NCBI GenBank assembly: GCA_949296805.1
Contig: CASFPO010000007.1
Coordinates: forward strand, 17,291-81,290
Length of the DNA stretch: 64,000 nt
From: an uncultured Bacillota bacterium
GTDB lineage: Bacteria > Bacillota > Clostridia > Christensenellales > UBA1242
Direction: 5' to 3'
Shown piece by piece: positions 20,301 to 59,320 of this stretch (within the stretch, counting starts at the first letter, position 1; each line of letters starts with the position of its first letter). The translations under genes and the position numbers were made by a program. The notes below the pieces were generated by a model. That model was not told the origin of the DNA. It made no database searches and saw only the letters and a program-made list of their open reading frames with translations.

Positions 20301-20317
20301 TTTCTTTAGAAAAGTAA

Positions 20318-20399: not shown

Positions 20400-21572
<1,173 letters not shown>

Positions 21573-31100: not shown

Positions 31101-34100
31101 GTAAATTCGACTACAGAAAGCGGTCAAGTGACTACAGGAATAAGTAGTTATAACGGCAACTATCTTTTGATTGACATTGATGAGGTTAGCTTTATACGGG
31201 ATACCACTTCAAGCACCTACTCTCGCTGGCAAGGAATATATAGCTATGAGCTTACCTTCCTTGACGAAAATAATGAGGCGATTGAAGGCACTTACCGAAT
31301 ATTGATTAGAGATAGTTCTAACAGCTATATAACAGGCAATGAGACCTATGACTTTTTAAATAATCCAAGTGCCTTTTTAACCTTTAATGTTACCTCTGAT
31401 GACGCAAAGCTTTCTGTCTACCGAGGCGAAGGCGAACTGCTTGCCTTTTCAAGCTTTAACAATTCTGGCAACCTTTACTATTATGAAGAGAACGGCGAAA
31501 CTATCTACACCCACCTGCCTGTTATCAATGAGACAGACCTAGAGCAAAGTGAACTGACTTATCGCTTTGCCTACTACTCGCCTGTCAACGCTGATGAAAA
31601 CTTGATTGTTTCCTTTATTCCACTTGCTGAAAACGGCTCAACACTTGAATATGTTACGGTAACTTACTACCCTTACATAAAATCACAATATGTTGTAGAT
31701 GGTGTATACTATTACTATTATGATATATCAGATAACCCTCAAGATATACAACAAATACCTATCTTTACCTATTCAAGCAATGACACTTATGAACCTGGTG
31801 CCGTAGTTACCTTTGACTTATCTCTTGGAAGTGGTACCTTGCCATCGGCTGGGCGTTATGTGCTTGAAAGACAATATATAGAAGGCAATGAAACTGACCA
31901 ATATGACTACTTTAGAAGAACTATTACCTTTGATGTAGACGAGTTTGGCATTATCTCTCCACTTGAAACGGTAGATAACGGAGAAAGCTCTTCGCTTGAG
32001 AGCATAGTTGGTGGAGATATCATCCTTAGTATGTATAGTGGCGAGGGCAATTCGTCAATTGAGGTTTCCTTCCCAAGCTACAGTCAAGATACCGGGCTTA
32101 ACAGTGGCTCTTTCTACACCCAAGAGGAGTTTGTAAGCGAGGATATCGTGCCAAGTTTTAGCGTTTCTGGAAACAAGCTACCTATGAGCTTGTATGTTCC
32201 AAAGTACAAGTTTACCACTCACGCTGTATATGACGAGGCAACAAATAGCTACTCGGTAAATTACAATAATGGACTTTCCTATTATGGCAACAGCTACTAT
32301 AGCTTAGGCAGTGACAATCTTTGGCATGTCTACTCAGAGGGCGTAGAGATTAGCGAGCCTTTTAATAGCGAAAGCGAAGCCCTTGCCTTCCTTCAAGACA
32401 AAGCTTCGATTGCTGAATATGTTCTTCAAGCAAAAATTGTTGCTTATGTTACAGAAAATGGCATAAGCACCACTAAATATTACTACTCTGACGGAAGCAC
32501 AACAAATGGATACCTAAACTTTTTTGAAACAGCAGAAAATGGTATTATAACTTCTACCTCTCCTGCGGTAGACAACTTCTACTTGCAAGGAAATTATGTT
32601 GTAACTTTATATCAATCCTATAACGACCCGCAAAGCTCCTTCTATTCTTTCTACAAGTTTGGCTTTGTGATAGAATCAGATGAGCCTGAGTATAACCTTC
32701 TTGATAGTGAGGGTTATCAGCTTAATGAGGTAACTCCTGGGGTATATTACACCAACAGTGACAGCATAACTGTTCAGTGGGAAGTGCCTACTAGCAACTA
32801 CCAAGCAAAAATTAATGAGGACTTTGATTATATCTATATAACCTCTTCGGGAAGTTTTTCTCACAGTGGCGAAGTTATAGCCGATGGCAATACGAGGTCA
32901 TTTACTATAGACTGCTCTGATTTAATCTTGACAAATGGCTCTTCACTTTCTATCACTTTGGAATTTGAAGGTCATAACTCTTCCTTCTACAGACGAACAA
33001 CTAAAACTATCTATTTTGATAGGTCTGCACCGCTTGAGAACCTAAATAACCTTATGGCAAACACCGAGAGTGCGACCGAAATCTTTACAACAAACTATCA
33101 ACAGCTAGAGTTTAGGTCTTATCAAGACTATCAAGGAGAGGCGCTTGAGGTTACTGCCTCGAACCTAAGCGAAATAGCAAATGCTAGCTACTCTTACACT
33201 ATCTCTACTGGAACCTTTAGGTATTTTAGCTATAATGTTACAACTTCTTTCTTTAATGATGTGCTTATGCAAAGCTTAAGAAATGCTTCTACTAATACCT
33301 TTGGCACACAGGAAATATATTATAGGCAAATACCAGCACTCGACTCCTACACACAAGTGGATAGGCATTCCTTTGCAGAAAACAGTTACTTCTCGCTTAT
33401 GGTTGATGATAATCTGTCGCTCAGCTGTGGCTATTATGAGATTGTTGAGCGTGACCACGCTGGCAATATGACAGTGTATCTTGTCTATGTAATCGACTCT
33501 ACCTTTGAGGTAGACGAAAACGTTTCAGATATTGCACTAAGCTATATAAACAATAATCATACCGAAAGTAATTATGTTTACTCAAGTCAAATTTCCAACG
33601 GCTATAATATCTATTCTAACAGCGGATTTACCCTTGAGCAAGTTTCATATAAATCTGACCCTTGGAATATCTTCTACGTTCAACTTTACGGGCAGAGCCC
33701 AGTAAGATATTTGACTTCGCCTTGGCTTGAAGAGGGTTATGTTTATAGGGTTACTATAAGCTCCTCTGCAATAGATTTTCAGCAGATTGCCCTTTCTACC
33801 ATCTTTGCTAGTGTTGAATCTTCTAGCAACAAACATATCCTTACTTTGACGGATAGAACTTCTGGCAGTATGCAAAATGTTTATCTAGCTATAATGGACG
33901 CCAATATCTACACCGAAAAGGTTGAGGACCCGCAAAGAACATCGGCAATATTAAATATTTCAGTGCCGACGCTCGCTCAATACCAAAGCACTACCACCGC
34001 TTATGTATTTCCTACAAATATCAAGATTTATCAGTTTAATCCACTCTCCTCTCAAGAAGATGGCTATGATATCTTGATGGAAGCAAATCAGCTGACCTAT

Positions 34101-36650
34101 GGCACTTGGACTCCGCTTGATATCTATCAGCCAGCTCTTAGCTATATTAGTTTTAACTATATAAATAACGGCGCTACCCTGCAAATTGTTATCAATCTTG
34201 GTGCAAATGCCCCACAAAAGGTTAAGTTTGAAATTTTAGACAACTTTGGCAATACCACCACAATTATTCAGCTTGCAAATGAAGTTGCCTATGACGAGAT
34301 AAGCGGAACCTATGCCATCTACACCCTTACCGAAAGTAATGGCGATGTTACCTATCTATCACAAAATGATATTACCTTTACTTACAATGAGCTACTTTAC
34401 ACAATCGATATCTTTGATATAGACGGCACTTCAATAATAGACAGCCTTAACGCTACTCATCTTGCAAATAATCTTGCCACCTATACTTTCTCGGCTGAGG
34501 AAGGTTTGAATATATGGAATGACTACTATAGAATCGATATTTTTGACAGCGAAAATGGAGATTATTTAAGAACACTCCACCTTCGTCTTTACTATCAACT
34601 GCCATACTTGACTTTCCAAACAAGCGAAGTTGAAAATGGCGGTATAGCCTTCTTTGATAGAAACCTTGTTCTATTTGAGAGAAATGACTTTGGTCAAGAG
34701 ACTGGAGTAACTGTAAACTTTAACGGAAACTCATACTCGGCTACTGCAACGGTGCTGACCACCTATTCTCCTACTGTTCGTGTGAGGTTTAGAGATGGTC
34801 AAGCCTTAAATTATAACGGTGTTTACTCCTATCAAGATAGCTATGGATACAGCGTATATCTTTCTAGCAATGGTGGTCAATCTTGGACAAACATCAACGA
34901 TAGATATTCTGCAACAAGCGGATACACTATCTCGGGAGTAAATGATTATTTGATTTTAATCATATATGACTCCGACCAAGTATTTACCGACCTATGCCAG
35001 ATTTATAAAATTAGTATTCTTGACTATACTGCCTCTTACTATTATATTACAGTAGACGGGCTGGTTATCGAGCCAAGCGATATGATTTATAAAGATAGTC
35101 AAGGCAAGGAATATCACACAAGCTATCTAGTAGCTGTTGACATTGATGACAAAGATAACAGACTTCATGTAAATCCTAACACAGAGCTAAATGTTGTAAT
35201 AAGCTCGCCAGTTGTTTCTAGCACAGGCACAGATGTTTCTGTTGAAACTTATTCCTATTCTTGCAATCAATCACGTGGCGATTTTGCAATAATCTATATC
35301 CCGCCATCTGATAATATAGTAACCGAGTTTACAGCTGAAACTACCTCTGGCGGTGTTACTAACTTAAGATTAAATTCTGGCTCAGTAGCTACTGTGGTGG
35401 ATGGCGAAGATGAACGCCAATATGACAGAATTAAAATTAATTTTACCTCTTATTATGGAATCAGCCAAAACTTAGTTAATATTGAGGTATTAAAATACTT
35501 TAATGGTCAATATGTTCAAATTACCCCACAGGTATACACTTCTGGCACAACAAACTATATTTATCTTGAAAAAGCTGGCTCTTATAGGTTAAGACTTTAT
35601 GACTCCTGCCAACCTGCCAACGAGCAGAGTTTTAATGGCAATCGCTACTTTGACCTTATCTTCTTAAACGGAGTGCCTTTCACTATAACCTATACCGACA
35701 CTATAACAGGCGAGCAAGTAATCTCTGAAAGAGTTGACAGGGCTGTATATAACGGAAGTGTTATCCTTTCGCTTTACAACCTTTCTACCTACTATCAAAT
35801 TGGTCACTATCCAAGAATTTCAGTTACTCGAAATGGTGCAAGTTACACGGGTTATACTTCTTCTAATAACACTTACACCTTTACAAGTCCTGGCTACTAC
35901 ACTGTAACTTTTGTGGATGCTATATCTTCGCTTGAGGGCGAGGCAAAAGAGTTGCGACAAGACCAATTTAACTTTACTATCATAAATGAAAATGAATCTC
36001 GCTATTCTTATACCTTTAGTCCATATAAAAATTACTATGTTGAAAGCGTTATTAAATATAATGGAGATAATGAAGTTGATATCACTCAAGATTTGATAGA
36101 TATAGGCAACTTTGAAACGGTACAGATAAACGGCAGGACTTACCTTTCGGAAGTGTCACTTAGCTACCTTGACAACAAAACTGGCAGTGGTAAATACAAA
36201 CTAACTATCAACACTAACGATTTAACCTATGCAAATTCTACAAGTAGCTCTTACACCTTTGAGTTTTGGCTTAACAATCAAGTTCCGCCTTTGAATATAT
36301 CTTTAAATGAAGGCGATTCAACAACTGGCTCTATCACAATAACCTTTAATGTACAAAACTTCTACAATGCTATGGGCGATTGTTATATCCGCATTGGCTC
36401 TGACTACTACTACTTTACAGCAGACACGCTTGCAAGTTATGGCGATGTTTATACAATAACCATTAATGAGACTGGCACTTATTATGTACAAGTCTACACG
36501 ATGAGTAACAACCTGCTCTACTCAAGCAAAATTGTGAGAAACGAGCCACTAAATGCCTTTGCTATAATTGCTATAATTATTGGTGTAATTGCTTTAGTAG
36601 CTATCATCTTAATAACAATCAGACTTAGAAAGAGGCAAAAGGTTAAATAA
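28194..36650 (+). CDS. Giant (2818 aa) N/Y/S/T-rich surface protein with N-terminal signal (possible lipobox LLAC) and C-terminal TM anchor
   Basis: Start moved to MISKRLFNGFIISFILIGLLACG (ATG 28194, AAGAGG RBS). The C-terminus is LNAFAIIAIIIGVIALVAIILITIRLRKRQKVK. No LPXTG, and no catalytic motif recognised. Confidence 0.8.
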   Translation: MISKRLFNGFIISFILIGLLACGMFFSSNKLPSTFAEPPTYQMIENTQYDYLDVNQNNTTGNYQDTIFLMQGGQTGSSIDVSIARGDLISNSLGNQNYAYISGLDESGTPREYYYFSFPNNLSLYYNLTNTQVESGQSGTNLLQEQLISTYATSNGDNAFAIESIGLTPQKLEISFLLNTLESQPQFSGNQVILNQEGIYTLVINVNLYFTDNGGITFTPSVATIYYTFMVFNSETYFNFSSGLPNLTPSSNMQSTALPSSNRFSRYYFYNYSYSGDSLTDPNALATISYNPNLYQLTITYVDLNSNSYTSTLVYSNGEFSQVDDNGNVIDESEYFVQSYLEGEDGKVVFLNLGYYDISLQYLYTSEQNVYELPLDQLENTTLLNKDQRLYIYGYQAVYSDYASIDPVTNQPEAVELKTYNLEELVQENSADITASVNNYLVNHPDIIGSSANNTSNPISYVGVNYKTVSAPMPFDNDLIETMALTYLNELEISPASTNQTPIKFITNGNLSAVNSRIYRLTTTRTDGIVSYQTDGYSNFEGFNQNEPGIYLYLIQYSYDNYLSTTGTLQNSYYHYQIFFFEITNTLPTVTVLDEELNEVYASGFTNKGVYIINDSQSNNYDAEVTITLSAYNYNRENDNDNRENDNYNRENYYYYDQDITTLSNYGIYYTYFEYLSGEENSLYNEKLGGKYGIYIDPSNPYSNAYYTINVYSANTTQPSTKYFTIDTSEISGISARSVSFSSNNTYRIGSALSSYNTNQPTVFSWNEKPSGARTYGYVKYIPLSSINYYSSQTNSASLTQLLNYWLDEGILPVSYKIDFSQTNQSSWSEYRNSLSFTSTIDATYVKSNAGFYILEVYDQAGNSKFEVFLLDTTQPLFVQHTQYNSEIRQIMTNNQSISVPESGTRMWIEWGSQKAIYLESLEAYQLITPYRYSPDYQADAVRLSEKLNEFFSSSSEDIYRATTITVGTVNSTTESGQVTTGISSYNGNYLLIDIDEVSFIRDTTSSTYSRWQGIYSYELTFLDENNEAIEGTYRILIRDSSNSYITGNETYDFLNNPSAFLTFNVTSDDAKLSVYRGEGELLAFSSFNNSGNLYYYEENGETIYTHLPVINETDLEQSELTYRFAYYSPVNADENLIVSFIPLAENGSTLEYVTVTYYPYIKSQYVVDGVYYYYYDISDNPQDIQQIPIFTYSSNDTYEPGAVVTFDLSLGSGTLPSAGRYVLERQYIEGNETDQYDYFRRTITFDVDEFGIISPLETVDNGESSSLESIVGGDIILSMYSGEGNSSIEVSFPSYSQDTGLNSGSFYTQEEFVSEDIVPSFSVSGNKLPMSLYVPKYKFTTHAVYDEATNSYSVNYNNGLSYYGNSYYSLGSDNLWHVYSEGVEISEPFNSESEALAFLQDKASIAEYVLQAKIVAYVTENGISTTKYYYSDGSTTNGYLNFFETAENGIITSTSPAVDNFYLQGNYVVTLYQSYNDPQSSFYSFYKFGFVIESDEPEYNLLDSEGYQLNEVTPGVYYTNSDSITVQWEVPTSNYQAKINEDFDYIYITSSGSFSHSGEVIADGNTRSFTIDCSDLILTNGSSLSITLEFEGHNSSFYRRTTKTIYFDRSAPLENLNNLMANTESATEIFTTNYQQLEFRSYQDYQGEALEVTASNLSEIANASYSYTISTGTFRYFSYNVTTSFFNDVLMQSLRNASTNTFGTQEIYYRQIPALDSYTQVDRHSFAENSYFSLMVDDNLSLSCGYYEIVERDHAGNMTVYLVYVIDSTFEVDENVSDIALSYINNNHTESNYVYSSQISNGYNIYSNSGFTLEQVSYKSDPWNIFYVQLYGQSPVRYLTSPWLEEGYVYRVTISSSAIDFQQIALSTIFASVESSSNKHILTLTDRTSGSMQNVYLAIMDANIYTEKVEDPQRTSAILNISVPTLAQYQSTTTAYVFPTNIKIYQFNPLSSQEDGYDILMEANQLTYGTWTPLDIYQPALSYISFNYINNGATLQIVINLGANAPQKVKFEILDNFGNTTTIIQLANEVAYDEISGTYAIYTLTESNGDVTYLSQNDITFTYNELLYTIDIFDIDGTSIIDSLNATHLANNLATYTFSAEEGLNIWNDYYRIDIFDSENGDYLRTLHLRLYYQLPYLTFQTSEVENGGIAFFDRNLVLFERNDFGQETGVTVNFNGNSYSATATVLTTYSPTVRVRFRDGQALNYNGVYSYQDSYGYSVYLSSNGGQSWTNINDRYSATSGYTISGVNDYLILIIYDSDQVFTDLCQIYKISILDYTASYYYITVDGLVIEPSDMIYKDSQGKEYHTSYLVAVDIDDKDNRLHVNPNTELNVVISSPVVSSTGTDVSVETYSYSCNQSRGDFAIIYIPPSDNIVTEFTAETTSGGVTNLRLNSGSVATVVDGEDERQYDRIKINFTSYYGISQNLVNIEVLKYFNGQYVQITPQVYTSGTTNYIYLEKAGSYRLRLYDSCQPANEQSFNGNRYFDLIFLNGVPFTITYTDTITGEQVISERVDRAVYNGSVILSLYNLSTYYQIGHYPRISVTRNGASYTGYTSSNNTYTFTSPGYYTVTFVDAISSLEGEAKELRQDQFNFTIINENESRYSYTFSPYKNYYVESVIKYNGDNEVDITQDLIDIGNFETVQINGRTYLSEVSLSYLDNKTGSGKYKLTINTNDLTYANSTSSSYTFEFWLNNQVPPLNISLNEGDSTTGSITITFNVQNFYNAMGDCYIRIGSDYYYFTADTLASYGDVYTITINETGTYYVQVYTMSNNLLYSSKIVRNEPLNAFAIIAIIIGVIALVAIILITIRLRKRQKVK

Positions 36651-45724: not shown

Positions 45725-45753
45725 TTGACAAATAACTTATATAATGATATTAT
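45725..45753 (+). promoter_or_regulatory. Candidate promoter of the 1765-aa gene
   Basis: TTGACA (45725-45730), 17 nt, TATTAT (45748-45753). Confidence 0.5.
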
Positions 45754-45785
45754 TATACTATAATACTTTATACAAAGGAGTAAAT

Positions 45786-48700
45786 ATGGCAGTAGAAAAT
45801 TCTGTTTCTATTAACGTAGATGTTAACGCACAAAACTCAGAAGGCAAACCGCTTAGTCAAAAAATAACAATGCACAACAAGCATTTTTGGGACGAAGACT
45901 CTTATTTTGCTTGTAGCGATGGCAGTGATAACCTTTTGCAAGTGGGACCTAAAAAATTAGTTCACTATTTTACCCTTAGCGGACTTGACAAATTTTTATC
46001 AGAGGATGGGCGATCGCTTTCAGCTGACAGCACACTTGCCTCTATCCTAACAAAAGGTATTTCCCTTGGAATGCACTCTTTGCAGGTAAGCCAAAATGGT
46101 AAAGACCTTAATATTGATATTGACGCCTCGGGCTACCATATCTCTGTTACACCAAGACAAATTACTTTAACTTATTCTAGTGGCGAGGAGAAGAAAAGCT
46201 ATTCTTACTCGTCAGAGGGCTGTGTTGATGTATCTTTTAATGCCATTGTAGTTATAAATATGCTGCTTTCTGAGCGAGCTACCACTGTAAAAAGTGCTGA
46301 AGATATTTATGACATACCACCTTATTTGCTTGGAATGTATTTTAAAAATCACAAAGATGACTTTACTAACAAGATAGACAAAACAAAGCTTACAAAAATC
46401 ACTTTTACTGAAGATGGACAGCCTTACTGCTTTGTTACCCACGTCAATAAAAAAAATGAAAGAGAAGTTTTGCTTTTTACAGGCGGAAAACTAGTACCTT
46501 TACAAGATATTATGGAGCCTCAGTATGACCCGTCTACCAACAGCTATAACCTTGTTGCTACTTCAAAATCGGCTGAGCATCCAGAACACTTTGCTATACC
46601 TATTGAAGTAGACGAAGAGGGCTTTATTTCTGACAAAACTTTAACAGGACTTTCTGTTCTATTTGTTGAAACCAGACTTGATTATGATGTTACCGCACCA
46701 GATGGAACGTATATAGACTTTATTAATGAGGTAGATGGCAAGGAAAAACTAAATAAAGACGCTTTTGTTGAAAAAGGCACTATAGAATATACCCCAAACT
46801 TTTTTGCCATAATGCCAGTAGAGGCTGAAGGTAACGAGGCTGAGGGTGACGCTAGTAGCACAAGTGGTAGCGAAGAGGCAACAGGAACTGGTGGCGAAGA
46901 TCCAGCAGGTGCTGGTAGCGAAGAGCCTACGGGAGCTGAAAGTGAAGAGTCGGCAGAAACCAGTGGCAGTGCGTCAGCAGGAGAACCAGCAGGAGCTGAT
47001 GGTGGAGAGCCAGCTGGTGCGGGGGCTGGTGGCGGAGCTGGTGCTAGTGCGTCATCTGGTGCGGGAGATAGAAGCGGAGAGGCTTCTGGCAAACCACATG
47101 CCAACAATCCATACCTTAACTACTACAATTATCAAAACAGTGCTGAAGCCAAGCAAGAGCTTAAAGAGAGAAATGCTCAATTTAAGGCAAATATGCAAAC
47201 TTTTAACACTGCAATGGGCGACAGTTTGTTCGGAGTTGGTGCTATTATGACGCTTGTTTCACTTATACCAGGGGTTGGGCTTGCAGTAATGATACCTGGG
47301 TTGATACTATCTTGCGTAGGACTTGTGCAAACAACTTTTGCCGATGACCTTGTATTTAGTCCTTTTAAGGTTGCAAAACACAAGATAAGAGATTACCGAT
47401 TTGAAGAGGGAGAAGAATTTGAGTACCGTAGCAAGTTTTTAGAGCGAGAGAAGGAGCTTGACAGACTGCACGAAAATTCGCAGGAGGCGTTAAGTGAATT
47501 TCTTTCAATATACTCAAATTTAGGCGAAGGCGAAAATACCTTTGCCCTCACTTTGGCAGAGCTATTTAACAGCAATGGTGTGGGCATAGCTATAGACGGC
47601 GACAAGATGTCACAACTCCACTCGCTTGACCATTTAGACCAAAGTATAGCTATGGCGTCTATCCTTGAGCAGATAGCGAGCGAAACGTCAGAAGAAGAAA
47701 AAGCCAAGCTTATTGAAAGTTTTGCAGACAATTATTTTCAAGACTTAACCGAGGAGCAGTTAAATTTAATTAATACCACCCTCTTCAGTGACAGTAACAA
47801 AGAAGGGCTAAAGGCTTATTTAAGGCAACTAAACCAAACAAATACCGTTTTAGCACAAGAGAGAACACTGTTTAACTCTCAGCAACAGGAGCTTGATAAT
47901 GCGACCATCTATCGAATAAAGTTTTTTGCTAGCACGCCACAGCTTTCTGAGGAGCAGAGAGTAAAATTATTTGAGAGATATGGCGAAGATATTATAAAAT
48001 TTGCCCTTACTAAATATAACGGCTCTGCGCAGATTCTAGAAAGTATTGTATCCTCTGCGCCAGAGGGCACTCAAGCTCAGCTTAACGAGATACTTGACAA
48101 CGCTTTTGATAGGGTTCAAGCCAAGTTTGACTCAATAGATAAGCAAGCGTCTGACAATGTTGCAAAACACGAGCAAGTAGAGGTTTTGCGTGGGTTTGCT
48201 GGTGCTATATCACAGCTTGAAAATGTGGGCGACAATCTTGTGACAATTGACCAGCTTAGCCAATCGGTAAAGGAGTTTACAAATGGTTGCACTCAGCTCT
48301 TGCATCAAGACAGCAAAGCAATGGAAAGCCTTGGCGCAATTGCTGATGCATTAGTTCGAGGCAAGTCTCATCTTGACGCTTCGCATAGAAATGAACAATC
48401 TATTCTCAATCAAATTGCTAGCTATTTTGCAGGGTTTGAGGATACTTCGGCTGAGGCTACAAGTTTGACTGACAAGCAAAAGGAATGTTTTGAAAAACTT
48501 GAAGAGGCAGGCTTTTATAAAGAGATTGCCACTTTGTATCAGCATCAATCGACTCGCACTTTGCTTCCAGCTTTATCTGGCAAGGTAGAGAGCGAGGAGA
48601 GTATAATTAATATTGTAGACATTTTGGCAAAGGAGAGGTTACTCTCTGTTATTGAAGAGGCTAGCAAGAGCAGTGGCGCACGAACACTGCTGAGCAAAAA

Positions 48701-51083
48701 GACTCCTCAAGAGCTTGCCGAGATGATAGAGGTAGCAGACGATGGCACAGTAACTGTTAATTTTGGCGGAGTAAGTTTTGAGTACACAAACGAAGATAAG
48801 CAAGAGTGCTTGTCCACTCTTGACTATGTAAATGCAAGAGCCGAATATGACAAGGAGAAAAATAAAACTGCAATAAACCTTATAGATGACAATTTTGTTA
48901 AGCTTGCCTTGACCGATGTAAATAACTCTAGCTCGCCTATTGCAAGGTTTGACAGTGCAAGCGGAAGCTATATAGTTGAAAATTATAATGACTCTGAGCA
49001 CCCTACGATAACAACAGAGGCAGAATTATTTGCAGACCTTGAGCGAAGATACCCTAGCTTTGCCTCTTACGATGAGGAGACTAAGCGAAGGTTTGTGCTT
49101 ACTAAACTTGGTCTAGAAGGTCAGCAAGCAAGGCTTAAACATATGACAGAAAAGCTTAACCTAATCTCAGAGCGAGAAGAGTTAAGGCTTGAGAGCGAGA
49201 TTAAAAAGGGCGTAAATGTTGAGGCTAATAAAACCAAAAAGGCTGAGCTTAATGCAAGACGCACGGCAAAAGAGCAGGAATACGAGGTGTTATCTGCCAT
49301 CTACAGTAATGCGGAAGAGCTAATAAATGCTATTTTAAGTGGAAAGGTTGACCGCTTGTATGATGACCTAACTATCAGAAAAACCTTAGAAGATGAGGTA
49401 GACCTTGACTCTACTACCCTCTCCGACCTTGGCGCAGAAGTGAGCAAAAAGGTTGTGCAGTACACTGCGTTTGAAAAGCTTATCACTGACTTGCCATTAT
49501 CGGAGCAAGAGAAAAAGGATATAACTCAAGCTATCAAGACCAACCTTTCTACTCACAGTACCACACCACTTGACCAAATAGTTAGAGAGGAGCTAAAACC
49601 TTATCTAGAGAGTGCTACTGTTGACGGAAAAACTTGTCAGGCAATCTTGACACCTTTCTTTGAAGATGGCAAGCTTGACGGCAAGAAAACCGAAGAATTT
49701 TGTCAAAGCAAGGACGAGTTAATCGATAAGAGAACAAAATTAAATCTGACTTCAGCTAAATTCCTCTTTGGCGATAAATACACCAAAAAGCAGTATAAAA
49801 CTAGCAAAAATAGAGCCAAGGCAACAGAGCAGACCTATACTGACTATGTTGACTTCTTTGCAAAAAATAGCAAGTTTGACAGCAGAACTAAAAAGACCCC
49901 ACTCTACCCTGACAAAACTTTTGAAAGTGAAGAAGAGCTAAAAGAGCAAATTATTAGCGACCTAGCAAAAGCTAAAACAAAAAGAGCGCAAGATAAAGTT
50001 ATCTCTGGCTTTGCAATAGCGTTGGGCTGTGAAAAAGAGTACAAGTCTGCTAAAAAACTTATTGCCGATAAAAATATACAAAATGACGACAATAGAACTT
50101 ATATTAAGGCTACCGCAACAAAGAGCAAACGCCAAAGGGCTCACGAAAAGGTAGAGTCGTTTGTTCAAGACCTACTTAGCTCTGATTTGACAACTGCTGA
50201 CAAAATTGAAGAAGAAAAGCTTAGACAAAAAGTATTTGACCATCAACAAGCGTTTGACGCTATGGGTGTTTCTGCAAAAACACTGATTGAAACTTTGCAA
50301 AATGACAAATTAACCCAAGAGCAGAAGGAAGAAAAAATTAAAGAATGGCAAGAGCAGTATAACCTTAATAGAGAACTTGACGATATGCAACTTGATGACA
50401 TCATTGCAGTTGCAGATGAGGCAAGGTTTGGCGCAACGGAAGAAGATAGAGCTAAAATAAGAGCAAAAGCTATATACAAGAGGCAAAAAAGCGCTTATGC
50501 AATATACAGCAAAAAGAGCAAGTTGATAGAAAAGTTTTTGACCGAAAACCCAACCTATCCTTATGCACAAGAACTTATTAACGCCTTTGCAAAGGGCGAC
50601 CAAAGTTTCTTTGATTTGCACCCTGAGGCTAGGCAAGAAGGACTTTCTTTTGACGTAAACGATTTACACTATATGCAATATCTTGGCATAGATAGTTCTT
50701 CCTTTACAGGAAAAACAGTAGGAAAAAATCCTTCGCTTTCTGATAAAGAGAGAAAGAAGTTTGAAAAGACCTTAAAGAAAACTGCTCAAAAACTGACAGA
50801 AAAATTGCAAGAAGAAAGAGCAATGGCAACCGTTAGAATGGAGCAGAACTATAAAGCTTTTAGCAATCAGACCAAGGATGTAAATACCACTTATGGACGT
50901 GACAAAACAAGAAATAGAGATGCACGTGATGAAAATATAGTGCCACTATCTATCGCCCTGCAAAGACTTAAACTTGCAAGACAAAAAACCACTGCTCAAG
51001 AGCATACGCCGTCTGCTCCTAGCGCTGAAGCGACTAGAGTAACAGCGTCAGCACGTGAAGATGAAGGACGAGAAAGCGAATAA
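45786..51083 (+). CDS. Very large hypothetical protein (1765 aa): N-terminal globular region, acidic G/A/E/S disordered segment, TM hairpin, ~1250-aa E/K-rich helical region
   Basis: Start moved to MAVENSVSINV (ATG 45786, AAAGGAG RBS). TM hairpin FGVGAIMTLVSLIPGVGLAVMIPGLILSCVGLV. No P-loop or other catalytic motif seen. Confidence 0.75.
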   Translation: MAVENSVSINVDVNAQNSEGKPLSQKITMHNKHFWDEDSYFACSDGSDNLLQVGPKKLVHYFTLSGLDKFLSEDGRSLSADSTLASILTKGISLGMHSLQVSQNGKDLNIDIDASGYHISVTPRQITLTYSSGEEKKSYSYSSEGCVDVSFNAIVVINMLLSERATTVKSAEDIYDIPPYLLGMYFKNHKDDFTNKIDKTKLTKITFTEDGQPYCFVTHVNKKNEREVLLFTGGKLVPLQDIMEPQYDPSTNSYNLVATSKSAEHPEHFAIPIEVDEEGFISDKTLTGLSVLFVETRLDYDVTAPDGTYIDFINEVDGKEKLNKDAFVEKGTIEYTPNFFAIMPVEAEGNEAEGDASSTSGSEEATGTGGEDPAGAGSEEPTGAESEESAETSGSASAGEPAGADGGEPAGAGAGGGAGASASSGAGDRSGEASGKPHANNPYLNYYNYQNSAEAKQELKERNAQFKANMQTFNTAMGDSLFGVGAIMTLVSLIPGVGLAVMIPGLILSCVGLVQTTFADDLVFSPFKVAKHKIRDYRFEEGEEFEYRSKFLEREKELDRLHENSQEALSEFLSIYSNLGEGENTFALTLAELFNSNGVGIAIDGDKMSQLHSLDHLDQSIAMASILEQIASETSEEEKAKLIESFADNYFQDLTEEQLNLINTTLFSDSNKEGLKAYLRQLNQTNTVLAQERTLFNSQQQELDNATIYRIKFFASTPQLSEEQRVKLFERYGEDIIKFALTKYNGSAQILESIVSSAPEGTQAQLNEILDNAFDRVQAKFDSIDKQASDNVAKHEQVEVLRGFAGAISQLENVGDNLVTIDQLSQSVKEFTNGCTQLLHQDSKAMESLGAIADALVRGKSHLDASHRNEQSILNQIASYFAGFEDTSAEATSLTDKQKECFEKLEEAGFYKEIATLYQHQSTRTLLPALSGKVESEESIINIVDILAKERLLSVIEEASKSSGARTLLSKKTPQELAEMIEVADDGTVTVNFGGVSFEYTNEDKQECLSTLDYVNARAEYDKEKNKTAINLIDDNFVKLALTDVNNSSSPIARFDSASGSYIVENYNDSEHPTITTEAELFADLERRYPSFASYDEETKRRFVLTKLGLEGQQARLKHMTEKLNLISEREELRLESEIKKGVNVEANKTKKAELNARRTAKEQEYEVLSAIYSNAEELINAILSGKVDRLYDDLTIRKTLEDEVDLDSTTLSDLGAEVSKKVVQYTAFEKLITDLPLSEQEKKDITQAIKTNLSTHSTTPLDQIVREELKPYLESATVDGKTCQAILTPFFEDGKLDGKKTEEFCQSKDELIDKRTKLNLTSAKFLFGDKYTKKQYKTSKNRAKATEQTYTDYVDFFAKNSKFDSRTKKTPLYPDKTFESEEELKEQIISDLAKAKTKRAQDKVISGFAIALGCEKEYKSAKKLIADKNIQNDDNRTYIKATATKSKRQRAHEKVESFVQDLLSSDLTTADKIEEEKLRQKVFDHQQAFDAMGVSAKTLIETLQNDKLTQEQKEEKIKEWQEQYNLNRELDDMQLDDIIAVADEARFGATEEDRAKIRAKAIYKRQKSAYAIYSKKSKLIEKFLTENPTYPYAQELINAFAKGDQSFFDLHPEARQEGLSFDVNDLHYMQYLGIDSSSFTGKTVGKNPSLSDKERKKFEKTLKKTAQKLTEKLQEERAMATVRMEQNYKAFSNQTKDVNTTYGRDKTRNRDARDENIVPLSIALQRLKLARQKTTAQEHTPSAPSAEATRVTASAREDEGRESE

Positions 51084-53205: not shown

Positions 53206-53934
53206 ATGTATATAGAAGGAAAAAATGCAATCAAGCAAGCACTCGAGGCTGGAGTGACTATCAACAAGCTTATGATAGACAAAAATTATCAAGGCAGAAA
53301 GGATGAGATTATTAGCCTTGCTGTGCAGAAGAAAATTAAGTTTGAATTTGTGCCGAAGCTTGTGCTTGACAAGAAGTCGAAAACTGCTCATCATCAAGGA
53401 TATATTGCAGAAAGTGTGGACTTTAATTATTGTGAGGTTGAGGATATACTTGCAAAGGCTTTGACTAGAGGAGAAAGTCCATTTATTGTTATCCTCGACG
53501 GACTTGAGGACCCGCATAATTTTGGTGCAATCATCCGCTCGTGTGAATGTGCTGGTGTGCATGGAATAATCATCCCTAAAAACCGAGCTGTTCAAGTTAA
53601 TGAAACTGTTATCCGCACTAGCACGGGTGCGATTTCTAATATGCTTATTGCCAAAGTGACCAACCTTAAAGACGCCATAAAAGTACTTAAAGAAAATAAT
53701 GTTTGGGTTTATGCCTGTGAGGCAAAGGGCGAGAATATCTTCTCTTGCAACAAAGATTTTTCATTGCCAACCGCCATTGTAATCGGCTCGGAAGGGTTTG
53801 GAGTTAGGCAGTCGCTTATTGCTTATTGCGACGGCGTGTTATCGCTTCCGCTTAAAGGCAAGGTCAACTCTTTAAACGCTTCGGTAGCTTGCGGGATTGT
53901 TGTATTTGAAATTGTAAGAAGAAGGCAAGTTTAA
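53206..53934 (+). CDS. rlmB: 23S rRNA (guanosine-2'-O)-methyltransferase RlmB (SpoU/TrmH family)
   Basis: 242 aa. LDGLEDPHNFGAIIRS, IGSEGFGVR, NSLNASVACGIVVFE. Confidence 0.9.
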   Translation: MYIEGKNAIKQALEAGVTINKLMIDKNYQGRKDEIISLAVQKKIKFEFVPKLVLDKKSKTAHHQGYIAESVDFNYCEVEDILAKALTRGESPFIVILDGLEDPHNFGAIIRSCECAGVHGIIIPKNRAVQVNETVIRTSTGAISNMLIAKVTNLKDAIKVLKENNVWVYACEAKGENIFSCNKDFSLPTAIVIGSEGFGVRQSLIAYCDGVLSLPLKGKVNSLNASVACGIVVFEIVRRRQV

Positions 53935-53958
53935 AAAAATATGTTAAAAGGATTAGGC

Positions 53959-54053
53959 GGGCAAAAGTCCGCTCTGCCAAGCCCTTGGCAGAGCCTTTTC
54001 GCCCCTAGGCGAAAAGAAATTTTAAACGCAAGTTTAAAATTTGACTTTTGCCC
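53959..54053 (+). other. 95-nt near-perfect four-way-junction element (closing helix plus three tetraloop hairpins), 29 nt upstream of the sigH start
   Basis: P1 GGGCAAAAGTC (53959-69)/GACTTTTGCCC (54043-53). H1 CTCTGCCAA-GCCC-TTGGCAGAG (53972-93). H2 CTTTTCGCC-CCTA-GGCGAAAAG (53995-54016). H3 AAATTTTAAAC-GCAA-GTTTAAAATTT (54017-42). Confidence 0.85.
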
Positions 54054-54082
54054 CTACGCCACACTAAACAAGGAGAAAAAGA

Positions 54083-54667
54083 ATGACTGATGAAGAATTA
54101 TCGCAACAAGCTCAAGCAGGACAAGAGAGTGCTGTAAACCAGTTGCTTACAAAATACAAGCCACTTGTCAATCAGATAGCAAGAAGTTACTTTTTAACCG
54201 GTGGAGAAATGGAGGATATTGTCCAAGAAGGAATGATTGGACTATTTAAGGCTATAATGCACTATAATGGCAAGAGTGCCTCTTTTAAAACCTTTGCTAG
54301 CACTTGCATAAAACACCAAATTCAAAGTGCGGTACGAGTGGCAAGTTCGGAAAAAAACAAAATCCTCTCCTCCGCCCTGCCTATCATTGACCTTGTAAAT
54401 ACCGAGGAGGAAGAAGATAAGTCAGAGATTGTCTTTCCATCAGACTTACCTTCCCCAGATGAACGCCTTTTAGAGAAAGAACGCATTATGGAAATCGTTG
54501 AAAATATAAGAAAAACTCTCTCTAAGCTGGAATTAAAAGTGCTATCACTGTATTTAAAGGGCTTTAGTTATAATGAAATCTCTAAGCAGAGTGGGTTAAG
54601 CAAAAAAAGTGTTGACAATGCCCTTACCAGAATCAAAAATAAACTCGCCTTCCTAAAGTGTTGTTAA
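54083..54667 (+). CDS. sigH: RNA polymerase sigma factor SigH
   Basis: 194 aa, ...YKPLVNQIARSYFLTGGEMEDIVQEGMIGLFKAIMHYNGKSASFKTFASTCIKHQI... AAGGAGAA RBS. Follows mrnC-rlmB, as in Bacillus. Confidence 0.88.
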   Translation: MTDEELSQQAQAGQESAVNQLLTKYKPLVNQIARSYFLTGGEMEDIVQEGMIGLFKAIMHYNGKSASFKTFASTCIKHQIQSAVRVASSEKNKILSSALPIIDLVNTEEEEDKSEIVFPSDLPSPDERLLEKERIMEIVENIRKTLSKLELKVLSLYLKGFSYNEISKQSGLSKKSVDNALTRIKNKLAFLKCC

Positions 54668-54679
54668 GTGTCGTTGACA

Positions 54680-55190
54680 GGTGTTGTTAACACCTTTTTT
54701 ATTTAAGTGTTATTATAAAACTTATTTTTTTCTGCGATTTTGTTTAATTATGTATTTAATTTTATCTATTATTAGGTGTTGTTAACACCCTTTTTTATAT
54801 TTAAGGTTACTGTAAACCTTATTTTTCTCTGCGATTTTGTTTAATTATGTATTTAATTTTATCTATTATTAGGTGTTGTTAACACCCTTTTTATATTTAA
54901 GGTTACTGTAAACCTTATTTCTCTCTACGATTAAGTTTGATTGTGTATTTAATTTTATCTATTATTAGGTGTTGTTAACAGGTGTTGTTAACACCCTTTT
55001 TTATTTAAGTGTTATTATAAAACTTATTTTTCTCTACGATTTTGTTTATTTGTGTAATAAGTTTTACTTATTATCTAGTGCTAACAGCACATTTTTTATT
55101 TAAGTTTTTCTATAATCAAAGTTTTTTCTGCGAAGTAATTTAATTATGATACAAATTTTATCTGTTAATTAGTGCTAACAGCACATTTTT
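54680..55190 (+). repeat. Six tandem ~95-109 bp units, each with a terminator-like hairpin plus T-run, downstream of sigH
   Basis: GGTGTT-GTT-AACACC at 54680, 54775, 54872 and 54981 (with a partial duplicate at 54968). Covarying GTGCT-AAC-AGCAC at 55078 and 55172. Each is followed by T5-6. Confidence 0.85.
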
Positions 55191-55273
55191 AGTATATCAG
55201 TTGACTTATTTGTTTTTTTGATATATTATTAATCAAAATAGTTTTTTGCTAAGCTATTTGGCTGGCAAAGGAC

Positions 55274-55356
55274 GAAGGTCAAATTTTAAACTTTCGTTTA
55301 AAATTTCCTTTCGCTAAAAGCGAAAGGGCTTGCAAAGAATTTGCAAGCTGACCTTC
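55274..55356 (+). other. 83-nt four-way-junction element (second family member), 21 nt upstream of the metG start
   Basis: P1 GAAGGTC (55274-80)/GACCTTC (55350-56). Ha AAATTTTAAAC-TTTC-GTTTAAAATTT (55281-306). Hb CCTTTCGCT-AAA-AGCGAAAGG (55307-27). Hc GCTTGCAAA-GAA-TTTGCAAGC (55328-48). Confidence 0.85.
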
Positions 55357-55377
55357 CCCGCCTACAAGGAGAAAAGT

Positions 55378-57387
55378 ATGGAGAACAAATTTGTAAAACC
55401 AAGACCACAGTTTCCTAAAAAAGCTGTTATAACCTCTGGTATGCCCTATGGGAACAAACTTATTCACTTTGGGCATCTAGGAATGATACTGCGTGCTGAC
55501 GTATTTGCACGCTTTCTGCGAGACAGAATTGGCAAAGATAATGTTATCTATGTATCAGGGACAGACTGCTATGGCTCGCCAGCGGTCGAGGCTTTTAGAA
55601 AACTGCAAGAAGAGGGAAAATACAAGGGGCAAACTCTTCTTGACTTTGTTACCCAAATGCACGACAAACAAAAGGAAATCCTTGATAAATTTGAAATATC
55701 TTTTAACTTTTATGGTGGCTCTGCTATTGGTAGAGCCGGGCAGATTCACGAAGAGCTTAGCGAATGGTTTATTAAAACCTTACACCAAAATGGTATGGTG
55801 TCAAAGCATTCTTCCTACCAATTTTATGACAAAAAGCATAAGTGCTTACTTAATGGCAGACAAGTTATCGGCAAATGCCCTATTGATAATTGCCAAAGTG
55901 AAAAGGGCTATGCTGACGAGTGCGACCTAGGTCATCAATATCTTCCACAAGACTTAATCGACCCTATCAGTGCTTTAAGTGGAGATAAACCAGAGCTTGT
56001 GAAGATAGAAAATCTTTATTTTGACCTCGAAAAATGCACCGACCTTTTAAAAGAATGGATTAGCTCGATTGAAAAAAATAGCGACACCCCTCAATTTATG
56101 GTAAAGGAAATAAAAGAATTCTTTAAAAAGCCTGAGATTTATATCAAAAAGGAGTATTTTGAAGAATTCAACAAAATACAAAACCTTTTGCCACCTTTTA
56201 CAGAGCTTGAGCGTGGAGATAAAGCTCCTAAGACCATCGTTTTTGACAATCTTGAAGATAGAGAAAAGGCTTGTGAAATTTTGGCTTCAAAGGGCATTCG
56301 CTACCGTACAGGCAAGACGTTAACGCCTTTCCGCTTAACTGGAAATATCTCTTGGGGCGTGCCTTGTCCTACTATTGACGGCATTTCTGGGCAAACTTTT
56401 TATGTATGGCCAGAAAGTTTGTGGGCTCCGATTACCTTTACAAAAACCTATCTTGAGGCTAAGGGCTTTGATGACGAAGAATGGAAAAAATACTGGGCTG
56501 ACCCTGACGCCCAAGTTTATCAGTTTTTAGGCGAGGATAATCTATACTTTTATGGACCTGCACAGCAGGCTATTTGGCTATACACTCAAGGCAAAAATCC
56601 TGTGCTTAAGCCAGAAAAAGGACAACTGCAACTTACTAAAATCAATCCTATCAAATCAATACTTTATATGAACAAAAAGGCAAGTTCGTCTGGTTCAATC
56701 AAGCCACCTATGGCTATCGAATTTTTGGAGCATTACACTGCCGAACAAATCAGAATGCACTTTCTTGCTATGAATCTTGCCAATAACAATGTTTCACTTT
56801 CGCCAAAGGCTTTTGACAAAGATGACACCAGTGATGACATCGATCCAGTTGTCAAGGAAGGCAATCTGCTTACCAATGTCTACAATCGAATTTTGCGTAC
56901 TGTATTTTATTCAACTCAAACTCACTTTGATGGAATATTGCCAAAGTCCTCTATTGACGCAAGTACAATGGAAGAGTGCAGTAAAGTTATACTTAATGTT
57001 GAAAGATTTATGTATGATAAAAAATTCCATCAAGTTTATAACGCCCTTGATGTGTTTATTAGAAATATCAATAAATACTGGGTTAAAGAGATAAACAACT
57101 GCGTTACAGAAGAAAAGCTTGGGCATTTAACAGCAAACACTATGCAAATGATATTTGTTGCTAATGCCCTGCTCCATCCAATAGCACCAAGCGGAACAGA
57201 AAATGTGGCAGATTATATCGGCTTTAACAAAGACCTCTGTTTTAACTGGGAAAATATCTTTGGTAAATATGAAAGCGTGCTTGATAAGTCAAGAGGTGGC
57301 ACTATAAAAGAATTAAAACCAAAAGAAGATTTCTTTAAACGCCATCAGTCGCAACTTGACGAGCTTGCAAAGAAAATGAATGAATAA
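55378..57387 (+). CDS. metG: Methionine--tRNA ligase
   Basis: Start moved to MENKFVKPRP (ATG 55378, AAGGAGAA RBS). MPYGNKLIHFGHLG (HIGH-type), a zinc-knuckle region GKCPIDNCQSEKGYADECD, overall MetRS pattern. Confidence 0.9.
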   Translation: MENKFVKPRPQFPKKAVITSGMPYGNKLIHFGHLGMILRADVFARFLRDRIGKDNVIYVSGTDCYGSPAVEAFRKLQEEGKYKGQTLLDFVTQMHDKQKEILDKFEISFNFYGGSAIGRAGQIHEELSEWFIKTLHQNGMVSKHSSYQFYDKKHKCLLNGRQVIGKCPIDNCQSEKGYADECDLGHQYLPQDLIDPISALSGDKPELVKIENLYFDLEKCTDLLKEWISSIEKNSDTPQFMVKEIKEFFKKPEIYIKKEYFEEFNKIQNLLPPFTELERGDKAPKTIVFDNLEDREKACEILASKGIRYRTGKTLTPFRLTGNISWGVPCPTIDGISGQTFYVWPESLWAPITFTKTYLEAKGFDDEEWKKYWADPDAQVYQFLGEDNLYFYGPAQQAIWLYTQGKNPVLKPEKGQLQLTKINPIKSILYMNKKASSSGSIKPPMAIEFLEHYTAEQIRMHFLAMNLANNNVSLSPKAFDKDDTSDDIDPVVKEGNLLTNVYNRILRTVFYSTQTHFDGILPKSSIDASTMEECSKVILNVERFMYDKKFHQVYNALDVFIRNINKYWVKEINNCVTEEKLGHLTANTMQMIFVANALLHPIAPSGTENVADYIGFNKDLCFNWENIFGKYESVLDKSRGGTIKELKPKEDFFKRHQSQLDELAKKMNE

Positions 57388-58010: not shown

Positions 58011-58679
58011 TTAGCTATAAAAATATATTGCAAGTACTAAAATTATCATTGCTATAATCTTAAATTGTGAACAAAGCACTGCTTTTGTTTTTCCCTCTTT
58101 TAAAAGATGGGAAAAAACTTCGCTTAGCAAAAGCATTACAATTGCCACAGCGGTAAGGATAGTGCTAAGCATATGTCTTGTATTTAAGATATTATTTATG
58201 CCAAAACCTATTCCTAGTCCAATTGAGGCAAAAGTTAAAACGGTTAGGATTATAGCACTCGAGTCCTTATATTTTTTTATTCCACAAATTATAAGTCCTA
58301 CTGCCATACCTAAAAGCAAGCCACCTAAAAGAGCATACATTTCAAACGAGGCAAGTGAGAGCAAGCTAAGAGCAATTGCAAGATAATATAGTATATTTGA
58401 AAAACCGCTTAAAAGTTGTTTTGCCTTTTGATTTTGGATATTATTTGTTTGAACACCTTCATTAAAAATATTGATTACCAAAGCTATAACGACAAAAAGA
58501 GAAAGGGCGTTTAAAATTGAGGTTAAGTTTATTGTAACAATTGCATAAACTAGCAATAAAAGCATTGTTAGCGACCTTACAAGGTAACCCTGCCAATCTC
58601 CCTTATCTTTAAAAATTGCATAAAATACACTCATAATTACACTTGCCAAGGCAAGCAAGATTATTGGAACTAATATCAT
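58011..58679 (-). CDS. Polytopic integral membrane protein (about 7 TM), function unknown
   Basis: 222 aa, hydrophobic throughout. No motif assigned. Confidence 0.6.
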   Translation of the reverse strand: MILVPIILLALASVIMSVFYAIFKDKGDWQGYLVRSLTMLLLLVYAIVTINLTSILNALSLFVVIALVINIFNEGVQTNNIQNQKAKQLLSGFSNILYYLAIALSLLSLASFEMYALLGGLLLGMAVGLIICGIKKYKDSSAIILTVLTFASIGLGIGFGINNILNTRHMLSTILTAVAIVMLLLSEVFSHLLKEGKTKAVLCSQFKIIAMIILVLAIYFYS

Positions 58680-58756: not shown

Positions 58757-59320
58757 ATGTTTAAAATAAAAGACCTTTTGTTATATTTAAGTGCCTTTGT
58801 TCCGATGTATGTATTAATCCTCTTTAGGCTTATCATTGATATAATTAATGATAACCTTTCTTTTAATGTACTTAATACCATTAATCTTATTACCCTTTTG
58901 CTTTTAATTGCACTTGGAATAGCTGGTCTTTTTATCAATGTTTTTCATCAAAAGGATATAGAAAGAAAGGTTATCATTATTAAAAAACAAAACATTACTG
59001 ACAGGCATTTTTTAGGTTATTTTTCCCTTTTTGTGCTGTTTGCTTTGCAACTTGAACTCTCGCTTGTGAGTGACTATTGTTTGTTTATATTAATTTTAAT
59101 TTTTATAGGTGTAGTTTATATAAAAAATTCCCTTTATTATATCAATCCTCTTTTAAATATACTTGGCTACAACTTTTATGACATTGTCTATATTGAAGAA
59201 ACAAGTCACTCCAAAGGCGAATGCAAAATTTTTTACCGAGGCGAGCTTAAAACCAATCAAAGTTATTTAGTTAAATTTAAAAATGACAACTTTGCTTTTA
59301 TTGATAAAAATAAAAGATGA
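58757..59320 (+). CDS. Membrane protein (about 4 N-terminal TM plus small C-terminal soluble domain), function unknown
   Basis: 187 aa. No obvious RBS, so the start is uncertain. Confidence 0.5.
   Translation: MFKIKDLLLYLSAFVPMYVLILFRLIIDIINDNLSFNVLNTINLITLLLLIALGIAGLFINVFHQKDIERKVIIIKKQNITDRHFLGYFSLFVLFALQLELSLVSDYCLFILILIFIGVVYIKNSLYYINPLLNILGYNFYDIVYIEETSHSKGECKIFYRGELKTNQSYLVKFKNDNFAFIDKNKR

Follow-up and report, generated by a model that had tools for sequence, protein, structure and literature searches.

A perfect four-way-junction palindrome upstream of metG is a copy of an apparently undescribed, lineage-restricted family of structural intergenic elements

The DNA analysed here is a stretch of 64,000 nucleotides from an uncultured Bacillota bacterium (Clostridia, Christensenellales, UBA1242; contig CASFPO010000007.1), which is called the window throughout, and the subject of this report is a palindromic element, E2, that is located in it upstream of metG, the gene for methionine--tRNA ligase. 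E2 has a sibling, E1, upstream of the sigma factor gene sigH, and both were compared with related loci from metagenome-assembled genomes (MAGs) and metagenome contigs, which are designated by L-numbers. We conclude that E2 belongs to a family of structural palindromes between genes that is restricted to a lineage and apparently undescribed, and whose design is unusual in that it represents a perfect four-way-junction form of the structured extragenic palindromes that are already known. According to the proposed design each element would consist of a terminal inverted repeat of 7-15 bp (P1) around three abutting perfect hairpins, and the fold would form as single-stranded DNA, as an extruded cruciform or as RNA. 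The literature that was searched described no matching intergenic repeat of the four-way-junction or cloverleaf type from Clostridia/Firmicutes.

The anatomy of E2 and the position of its sibling are as follows (coordinates of the window):
55264..55362, minus strand: E2 as a whole, 99 bp; the sigH copy sets the canonical orientation, which E2 has on the minus strand; minimum free energy (MFE) fold on both strands
55274..55280: 5' strand of P1, GAAGGTC, pairing with 55350-55356
55281..55306: hairpin Ha (H3 of the family), arms AAATTTTAAAC/GTTTAAAATTT, loop TTTC
55307..55327: hairpin Hb (H2), CCTTTCGCT-AAA-AGCGAAAGG
55328..55348: hairpin Hc (H1), GCTTGCAAA-GAA-TTTGCAAGC
55350..55356: 3' strand of P1, GACCTTC, with one unpaired T (55349) just before it
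53956..54060, plus strand: E1, the sibling, lying between rlmB and sigH in the canonical orientation; covariance model score 100.5 bits

The P1 inverted repeat encloses three abutting perfect hairpins, so that either strand folds into a nearly linker-free four-way junction. This anatomy had been proposed for 55274-55356 in a first-pass annotation of the letters, and its coordinates and sequences were all confirmed; three outer pairs (GGC 55264-66 with GCC 55360-62) lengthen the element to 55264-55362. The identity of the Ha arms with H3 of the sigH copy, also noticed at that stage, holds for 54017-54042, and the pattern has two matches in the window, with 0.03 expected by chance. The loops are less constant: the Ha loop differs in the relative L036, and the Hc loop is polymorphic (A55338G in L036). 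RNAfold returned the four-way junction as the MFE structure of E2 with -46.3 kcal/mol on the plus strand (z -5.9) and -49.5 kcal/mol on the minus strand (z -7.1), and DNA parameters gave -32.2 and -33.2 kcal/mol on the two strands (z -8.3 and -8.7). Not a single pair of abutting perfect hairpins of at least 8 bp occurred in 100 dinucleotide-preserving shuffles of the 64-kb window, versus four such pairs and two triples in the real sequence, and the triples are exactly E1 and E2. The mirrored hairpin order of the two copies, which had been taken as a sign of an inverted core, is a true reverse complementarity of E2 and E1, which lie 1.2 kb apart: the covariance model in the sigH-type orientation matches 55267-55361 with 89.4 bits on the minus strand and 23 bits on the plus strand. 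The resemblance of the 3' flanks in direct orientation, in turn, largely dissolved into the common Shine-Dalgarno consensus ACAAGGAGAAAA. The rest of this flank, CCCGCCTA, recurs in reverse-complement form (TAGGCGGG) at the 5' edge of E1, which shows that the outer part of E2 is inverted as well.

The conservation of pairing was investigated with 13 distinct copies of the family (family A). Their MAFFT alignment was structurally poor and they were therefore re-aligned with a covariance model, which means that the following values come from an alignment fitted to the model and leaning toward the structure: 96% of the cells are paired, 23 of the 40 pairs have changed on both sides, and 66 double-sided stand against 5 single-sided changed cells. 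The observed covariation was reached in none of 500 shuffles. Hairpin H3 stands apart, since its 22 arm bases are identical in 13/13 distinct copies from at least five species, whereas every other helix varies.

A comparison in situ was possible with L036 and L038, which share ~93% DNA identity with the window. Stems and P1 exhibit no difference (0/236, 0%), versus 101/1383 (7.3%) in the mostly coding flanks (Fisher p = 1e-7) and 5/34 (14.7%) in the loops. Pairing is thus under strong purifying selection in situ, stronger than that on the neighbouring genes, while the loops drift. We also considered a neutral, self-correcting palindrome, in which quasipalindrome template switching keeps the arms identical without selection. 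This scenario predicts double changes at about the neutral rate, and their absence from 118 stem-plus-P1 pairs at ~7% background divergence counts against it. Of the 570 pairs in 14 distinct elements, 565 are Watson-Crick and 5 are G-T, and the folds of the two strands are equally stable; in terminator-like hairpins from the same genomes, G-T makes up 38 of the 459 pairs (p = 1.5e-9). Pairs are accordingly replaced by double Watson-Crick changes, essentially without G-T/G-U intermediates. This symmetrical maintenance of pairing on both strands suggests that DNA folding is most likely what is selected.

Homologs were retrieved with an exact-pattern scan for hairpin H3. It recurs together with the same architecture in the uncultured-Clostridia loci L007, L008, L009 (two copies), L012, L014, L019, L021 and L022. 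The arrangement rlmB-E1-sigH-E2-metG is present in L009, L014, L039 (the contig of a SigH homolog with 82% identity), L021 and L022, and E2 of this group has the direct orientation and lies ~120 nt further from the ATG. L007, L008, L012 and L019 harbor one copy in the divergent spacer between the peptidase M1 gene (pepM1) and a dnaB/dnaD-like gene. Lineages with 72-78% SigH identity keep the synteny and have no element in either spacer (L029, L031/32, L033/34, L040/41, L042, L043), and the copy of the pepM1/dnaB-like spacer is missing in L044, L045/46 and L047/48, which are relatives of the L012 group. L044 and L042 originate from the same assembly, so that the sigH-locus and the pepM1-locus groups belong to one clade. 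The absence of the element from the same spacers in relatives is indicative of a lineage-restricted acquisition and not of an ancestral metG or sigH leader. Copy numbers amount to two in the window, 1-2 exact-H3 copies per representative genome according to whole-genome pattern scans, and 3-4 diverse elements in the 8-kb loci of L008 and L012. Exact-H3 matches outside the clade (L001-L006, L010, L011, L013, L015-L018, L020, L023-L028; Clostridium ljungdahlii, C. ragsdalei, C. lapidicellarium, Chryseobacterium, Chitinophaga and others) are lone AT-rich hairpins without the other stems and were treated as unrelated; those of the C. ljungdahlii group apparently lie within a conserved stretch that may be coding. 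A candidate with two hairpins in L033/L034 (2684-2735) proved to be an ordinary terminator plus an AT-rich hairpin.

The architecture is not bound to the sequence of family A. A scanner for a closing stem with three abutting hairpins located the following sequence-unrelated elements of the same architecture:
L008: 297-398 and 7160-7250
L012: 806-871
L019: 5340-5409 and 5638-5703
L007: ~1723-1821
L045: 8130-8211

The element at 7160-7250 of L008 follows two terminator-like hairpins and has a variant H3, a different AT-rich hairpin. An element of different sequence is located 3' of pepM1 in four species, which is the position of elements B, D and F. Element C2 (L012/L019) lies ~50 nt downstream of a TTGACG-16-TATACT site, and element C1 is located between a terminator and the promoter of C2, at a distance of 230 bp from C2. 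Such unrelated elements 3' of genes and in other leaders, together with the presence of the family itself in the pepM1/dnaB-like spacer, speak against the earlier view of a gene-specific regulator. As a separate observation, the 3' strand of P1 in the C2 leader (L019 5600-5780, corresponding to L012 760-900, minus strand), GACATTCGCT, has a second possible partner, AGCGAATGTC, ~45 nt downstream, which could be the remnant of a third element or an alternative pairing; the GCGAATG motif also builds P1 of the neighbouring C1.

The core was clearly flipped in place between related species, as documented by L012 and L008, which have a near-identical promoter and leader up to P1 and mutually reverse-complementary cores. 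The same probably happened at metG, where the window and L009 share a homologous promoter and left junction (TTTGGnCTG) and their E2 cores are oppositely oriented. A sequence-based proof of the orthology of these two E2 copies was abandoned, given that 65% identity to the ortholog and 72% to the paralog are too close to discriminate. E2 has the orientation of the window in L035 (the source contig) and L036, as does E1 in L036, L037 and L038. This uniformity of same- and near-species assemblies makes flipping an evolutionary event rather than a demonstrated switch. Of the earlier proposal of core inversion within a fixed context, the inversion across species has therefore been retained (L012/L008, metG copy in L009), but heterogeneity within a species has not (L035 and L036 agree). 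The simplest route of flipping would be recombination or template switching between the P1 arms.

The genes and elements are arranged in the order ychF, mini-RNase III, rlmB, E1, sigH, a tandem array of ~520 bp, a promoter-like site, E2, metG and tRNA-Met. The features next to the elements are:
54083..54667, plus strand: sigH-like sigma factor gene between E1 and E2; NCBIfam SigH models 4e-46, under the cut-off
55201..55229, plus strand: sigma-A-type promoter-like site TTGACT-17-TATTAT, with 10/12 consensus matches; a consensus match alone, no mapped start
55366..55371, plus strand: metG Shine-Dalgarno sequence AAGGAG, 3 nt past the last outer pair; unpaired in the predicted leader fold
55378..57387, plus strand: metG, methionine--tRNA ligase, 669 aa, divergent; NCBIfam PRK00133 1.2e-69, 235.6 bits, cut-off 587

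A homologous site, TTGACA-17-TATTAT (11/12), lies upstream of E2 in L009. E2 is located ~35 nt downstream of the predicted promoter, and this spacing places it in the putative 5' untranslated region (5'UTR) of metG, where it would also be transcribed. The junction forms in the predicted metG leader and leaves the Shine-Dalgarno sequence free, so that the mRNA would carry a junction of ~-46 kcal/mol ending a few nucleotides before it. Neither an alternative terminator/anti-terminator nor a fold that sequesters the Shine-Dalgarno sequence was found in the leader fold.

A T-box leader had been expected at this position, although none of its features had been recognized there, and the profile searches agree with the latter statement. 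RF00230 has no match at the gathering threshold in the window or in the relatives' loci, a permissive Rfam scan of 53800-55500 yielded no T-box match at E<=10, and the T-box core pattern (<=3 mismatches) matches only within distant coding regions and nowhere near metG. Among all Rfam 15 families there was only a sub-threshold chance match to SraB (16.8 bits versus a gathering score of 130). A T-box or any other riboswitch was rejected on these grounds. The expectation itself does not suit this lineage: the sigH-metG spacers of relatives, with 9-46 bp in L029, L033 and L043 and 140-260 AT-rich bp in L031, L040 and L042, contain neither a T-box nor the element, and the lineage uses no T-box at metG. 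For annotators this means that the structured region before metG and sigH in these MAGs is no riboswitch or T-box.

Some further observations concern the locus itself. The match of metG to PRK00133 falls in two stretches and scores below the 587-bit cut-off, which marks a divergent methionyl-tRNA synthetase; Pfam tRNA-synt_1g was found in a metG ortholog. Where Bacillota usually have the neighbourhood sigH-rpmG-secE-nusG, the order here is rlmB-sigH-metG. A tandem array occupies 54679-55200, between sigH and the promoter of metG, with units of ~96-109 bp, each with a terminator-like hairpin (GGTGTTGTTAACACC or GTGCTAACAGCAC, then a T-run), six in a row. The array is absent in L009, and a sigH-metG spacer of 711 bp here versus 504 bp in the close relative L036 is indicative of a variable copy number.

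The near absence of G-U pairs, the irrelevance of orientation and the location of some copies outside obvious transcripts favour selection on DNA folding or strand-symmetric recognition, that is, a structure-only element comparable to repetitive extragenic palindromes (REPs) and bacterial interspersed mosaic elements (BIMEs). This is the reading to which we incline, short of conviction. A strand-specific regulatory RNA is probably not involved. Possible roles at the DNA level would be hairpin or cloverleaf extrusion, or the recruitment of a structure-specific DNA-binding or processing protein, as in REP/BIME and the REP-derived REPINs, and the AT-rich conserved H3 may serve as an easily melted nucleation or recognition module. 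The main rival is an element that acts at the RNA level. Its junction would be selected in transcripts (5'UTR, intercistronic, 3'UTR), either as an obstacle to exonucleases, 5'-3' (RNase J) or 3'-5', or as a site of processing, and would determine how stable the sigH and metG messages are, whatever its orientation. There are precedents, in that a REP stabilises mRNA at malE-malF of E. coli and 5' stabilisers act in Bacillus. The very stable stems are in accordance with such a role, as are the positions of E2 downstream of a 10/12 promoter match and of its L009 counterpart downstream of an 11/12 match, of C2 in L019 downstream of TTGACG-16-TATACT, of E1 between the co-directional rlmB and sigH, and of B, D and F 3' of pepM1; the predicted leader, moreover, retains the junction with a free Shine-Dalgarno sequence. 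However, G-U pairs are nearly absent, compared with 8% in the terminator hairpins of the same genomes, and a single G-U in 40 pairs would hardly weaken an RNA of -46 kcal/mol, so that RNA stability alone does not account for the 0/236 stem changes. C1 between a terminator and the next promoter, the L008 element (7160-7250) behind two terminator-like hairpins, and the position of E2 away from the extreme 5' end of the predicted transcript are likewise at odds with it. We regard selection at the RNA level as possible but doubtful. At metG and sigH, where the elements would be transcribed, a stabilising or processing role is, on the other hand, likely as a side effect, and at metG the junction plausibly represents an orientation-independent exoribonuclease barrier and no sensor of tRNA-Met or methionine.

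Several points weigh against selection at the DNA level. No partner such as a REP-associated tyrosine transposase (RAYT) or HUH transposase, a recombinase or a structure-specific binder was identified, with transposase-like genes sought only among the few annotated open reading frames (ORFs). The copy number looks low, and the copies are diverse, without near-identical counterparts at distant sites, unlike classical REPs or miniature inverted-repeat transposable elements (MITEs). For a cruciform to extrude spontaneously in vivo, the arms, with 9-12 bp, are short. Good promoter matches closely precede several copies (E2 in two species, C2 in L012/L019), and stop codons closely precede others; an RNA-level role would fit both placements too. 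Furthermore, the G-T depletion contrasts two hairpin sets that were ascertained differently, the positional orthology of E2 with L009 rests on a common promoter and left junction, and the invariance of H3 is inflated by the retrieval of homologs with exactly this hairpin.

The latter bias also bears on the proposal that H3 (AAATTTTAAAC-N4-GTTTAAAATTT) is the duplex operator of a dimeric regulator common to sigH, metG and the pepM1/dnaB-like region, with the other hairpins as accessories. A palindrome of operator-like dimensions whose 22 arm bases do not vary, while the other helices do, is what this proposal predicts. Yet homologs were ascertained by exact H3, the family member at 7160-7250 of L008 has a different AT-rich hairpin, elements of the same architecture exist without H3, relatives regulate the same genes without it, and the compensatory changes in P1, H1 and H2 are left unexplained, which makes an operator improbable. 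A selfish, non-autonomous mobile element of the MITE, REP or PATE type, inserted twice near sigH in opposite orientations and devoid of host function, is unlikely as well, if somewhat less so. P1 would then serve as the terminal inverted repeat, and a transposase would recognise the hairpin H3. The presence/absence pattern among close relatives, both orientations, the occurrence of one family at unrelated loci (sigH, metG, pepM1/dnaB-like spacer), nearby paralogs compatible with local hopping (E1-E2 1.2 kb, C1-C2 230 bp) and the appearance of P1 would all be explained. Purifying selection in situ (0/236 versus 7.3%) is, by contrast, unexpected for a dead insertion, and target-site duplications are not visible: none of the copies has flanking direct repeats, the relatives' empty sites being too diverged for exact junctions. 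Near-identical copies were not found, with 1-2 exact-H3 copies per representative genome, and no transposase was identified among the few annotated ORFs, none having been sought elsewhere. Plasmids and phages had no match in a blastn search ("distant" mode), nor did viral contigs in an exact-pattern scan. A plasmid, phage or viral origin (single-strand origins, single-strand initiation sites [ssi], packaging sites) was rejected on these negatives, and a purely selfish MITE is disfavoured by the in-situ selection and the lack of target-site duplications and near-identical copies. Finally, a dedicated cis-regulatory leader RNA of metG that senses tRNA-Met, methionine/SAM or a protein and replaces the T-box would suit the position directly upstream of the metG ribosome-binding site in the predicted 5'UTR. 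It is nevertheless very unlikely, because loops, bulges and junction nucleotides are not conserved (loops differ even among near-identical relatives), the sister lineage L009 has its copy in the opposite orientation, members of the family also stand at genes of unrelated function, and the element is missing upstream of metG in six related lineages. Rfam gave no match even at E<=10, a T-box core is absent, and neither an alternative terminator/anti-terminator nor a Shine-Dalgarno-sequestering fold exists.

With selection on DNA structure as the favoured reading, we tentatively consider a more specific form of it, namely, that the elements are a class of DNA structures, not described before, which the host maintains. 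They would be perfect "double-cloverleaf" palindromes, extruding as four-way junctions at the boundaries of transcription units in uncultured Clostridia, and would be recognised or used strand-symmetrically, be it to absorb supercoils (a supercoil sink), to insulate, or to be bound by a structure-specific protein. This class would evolve by compensatory double substitutions, duplicate locally and flip through its closing inverted repeat. If the favoured reading is true, a nucleic-acid structure is maintained here purely as structure, with perfect stems, free loops and orientation, and a full turnover of sequence between species. The REP/BIME concept would then also hold for Bacillota, in the new form of a four-way junction, and the more specific reading would provide bacteria with a sequence-independent, structure-only type of chromosomal signal. 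With G-U nearly absent, selection is more likely to act on DNA, or on both strands, than on one RNA. The family also shows that "covariation" by itself is no proof of a regulatory RNA. The family is a tractable test case for the question whether small cruciform or cloverleaf structures have chromosomal functions.

Other repeats of the window touch the same subject. A non-coding zone of ~2.4 kb (780-3200) contains interleaved repeat families, namely, the hairpin CCCACACGGGTGCGTTGTGGG, runs rich in purines (GGATAAG/GGATTAG) and units of 129 bp. Ten copies of the 12-mer AAAGGATTAGGY lie in this zone, with 1.1 expected by chance, and one further copy (53947-53958) abuts the 5' edge of E1, where L036 and L038 have a different sequence; the 3' flank of E1, CTACGCCACAC, is similar to the CACGCCCACAC motif of the zone. 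Downstream of tRNA-Glu there are two identical 59-bp repeats (8634-8692 and 9100-9158, 466 bp apart), each with a hairpin TTTTCGC...GCGAAAA like that of E1 H2, followed by CTACGCC as in the E1 3' flank, and to judge from these motifs they may be partial relatives of the element. Weak model matches at 8621-8701, 9128-9246 and 20271-20356 were discarded, as they form no four-way junction; the first two correspond to the repeated H2-like hairpin. Three copies of a 42-bp hairpin repeat, CGGGGTTCCCCGCAAATCGTGAGATTTGTGGGGTGGTTTTCG, are located at 8791-9036.

The remaining observations concern coding regions. The protein encoded at 58757-59320 (plus strand) resembles KwaA of the Kiwa anti-phage system (60 bits, NCBIfam cut-off 100), and the divergent gene at 58011-58679 (minus strand) encodes a protein of 222 aa without family match. 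This pair is conserved in L029, L040, L042 and L043; no KwaB was noticed in passing. Giant ORFs are present at 28137-36650 (2837 aa) and 45744-51083 (1779 aa, no Pfam match), and a large ORF upstream of ychF is conserved at the same position in relatives with a very variable length (1517-2248 aa). Inside the ORF 20400-21572, a 33-nt imperfect inverted/tandem repeat (AACAGGACCGGCAGGGCCAGTTGGACCTGTTGG) at 21426-21492 resembles a collagen-like Gly-X-Y coding repeat.

A comparison with known systems illustrates which features E2 and its relatives share with each of them. T-box leaders of Bacillota aminoacyl-tRNA synthetase genes have only the position in the 5' leader in common with E2, which lacks a specifier loop, the T-box sequence, a terminator/antiterminator pair and an Rfam match, and which is free in orientation and missing in relatives. 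Integron attC sites likewise conserve structure over sequence, work as folded single-stranded DNA and can be branched when long. However, they require R''/R' core sites (RYYYAAC / GTTRRRY) and an imperfect stem with extrahelical bases, none of which occur in E2, and they are located 3' of promoterless cassettes beside an integrase, unlike E2. The two ends of P1 read GGCGG.../...CCGCC, no stem has a mismatch, and the genes on either side are housekeeping genes whose synteny is conserved. Invertons are not matched either, given the single orientation among assemblies, the promoter-like site outside the core and the lack of an invertase gene among the neighbouring genes.

Structured MITEs, such as Correia/NEMIS of Neisseria, enterobacterial ERIC/IRU, pneumococcal BOX and bcr1 of Bacillus cereus, are co-transcribed with neighbouring genes and can alter mRNA processing or stability, as exemplified by RNase III acting on Correia. 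The likeness to E2 comprises a length of ~100-150 bp, terminal inverted repeats (P1 is a perfect one of 7-15 bp), very stable predicted RNA folds, insertion into 5' and 3' UTRs in both orientations, and presence/absence polymorphism between relatives. MITEs nevertheless have target-site duplications, many near-identical copies and imperfect, decaying stems that form one long hairpin, whereas the E2 family exhibits no visible target-site duplication and has perfect stems under purifying selection in a linker-free four-way junction.

The closest counterparts are REP, BIME and REPIN of Proteobacteria, single imperfect hairpins of ~35 bp with a conserved GTAG head and tens to hundreds of near-identical, RAYT-associated copies, which affect mRNA stability when transcribed and bind DNA-level factors (gyrase, IHF, Pol I, RAYT). 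Like them, the E2 family consists of extragenic palindromic units that form hairpins in single-stranded DNA or RNA and occur in either orientation, in mosaic clusters within intergenic regions and at transcription-unit boundaries, with pairing kept by compensatory change and persistence at orthologous sites. A GTAG head is not visible in the element sequences. In contrast to REPs, the elements described here are perfect palindromes with three different hairpins in a closing stem, and they appear to form a low-copy family of highly diverse sequence in an uncultured lineage of Clostridia.

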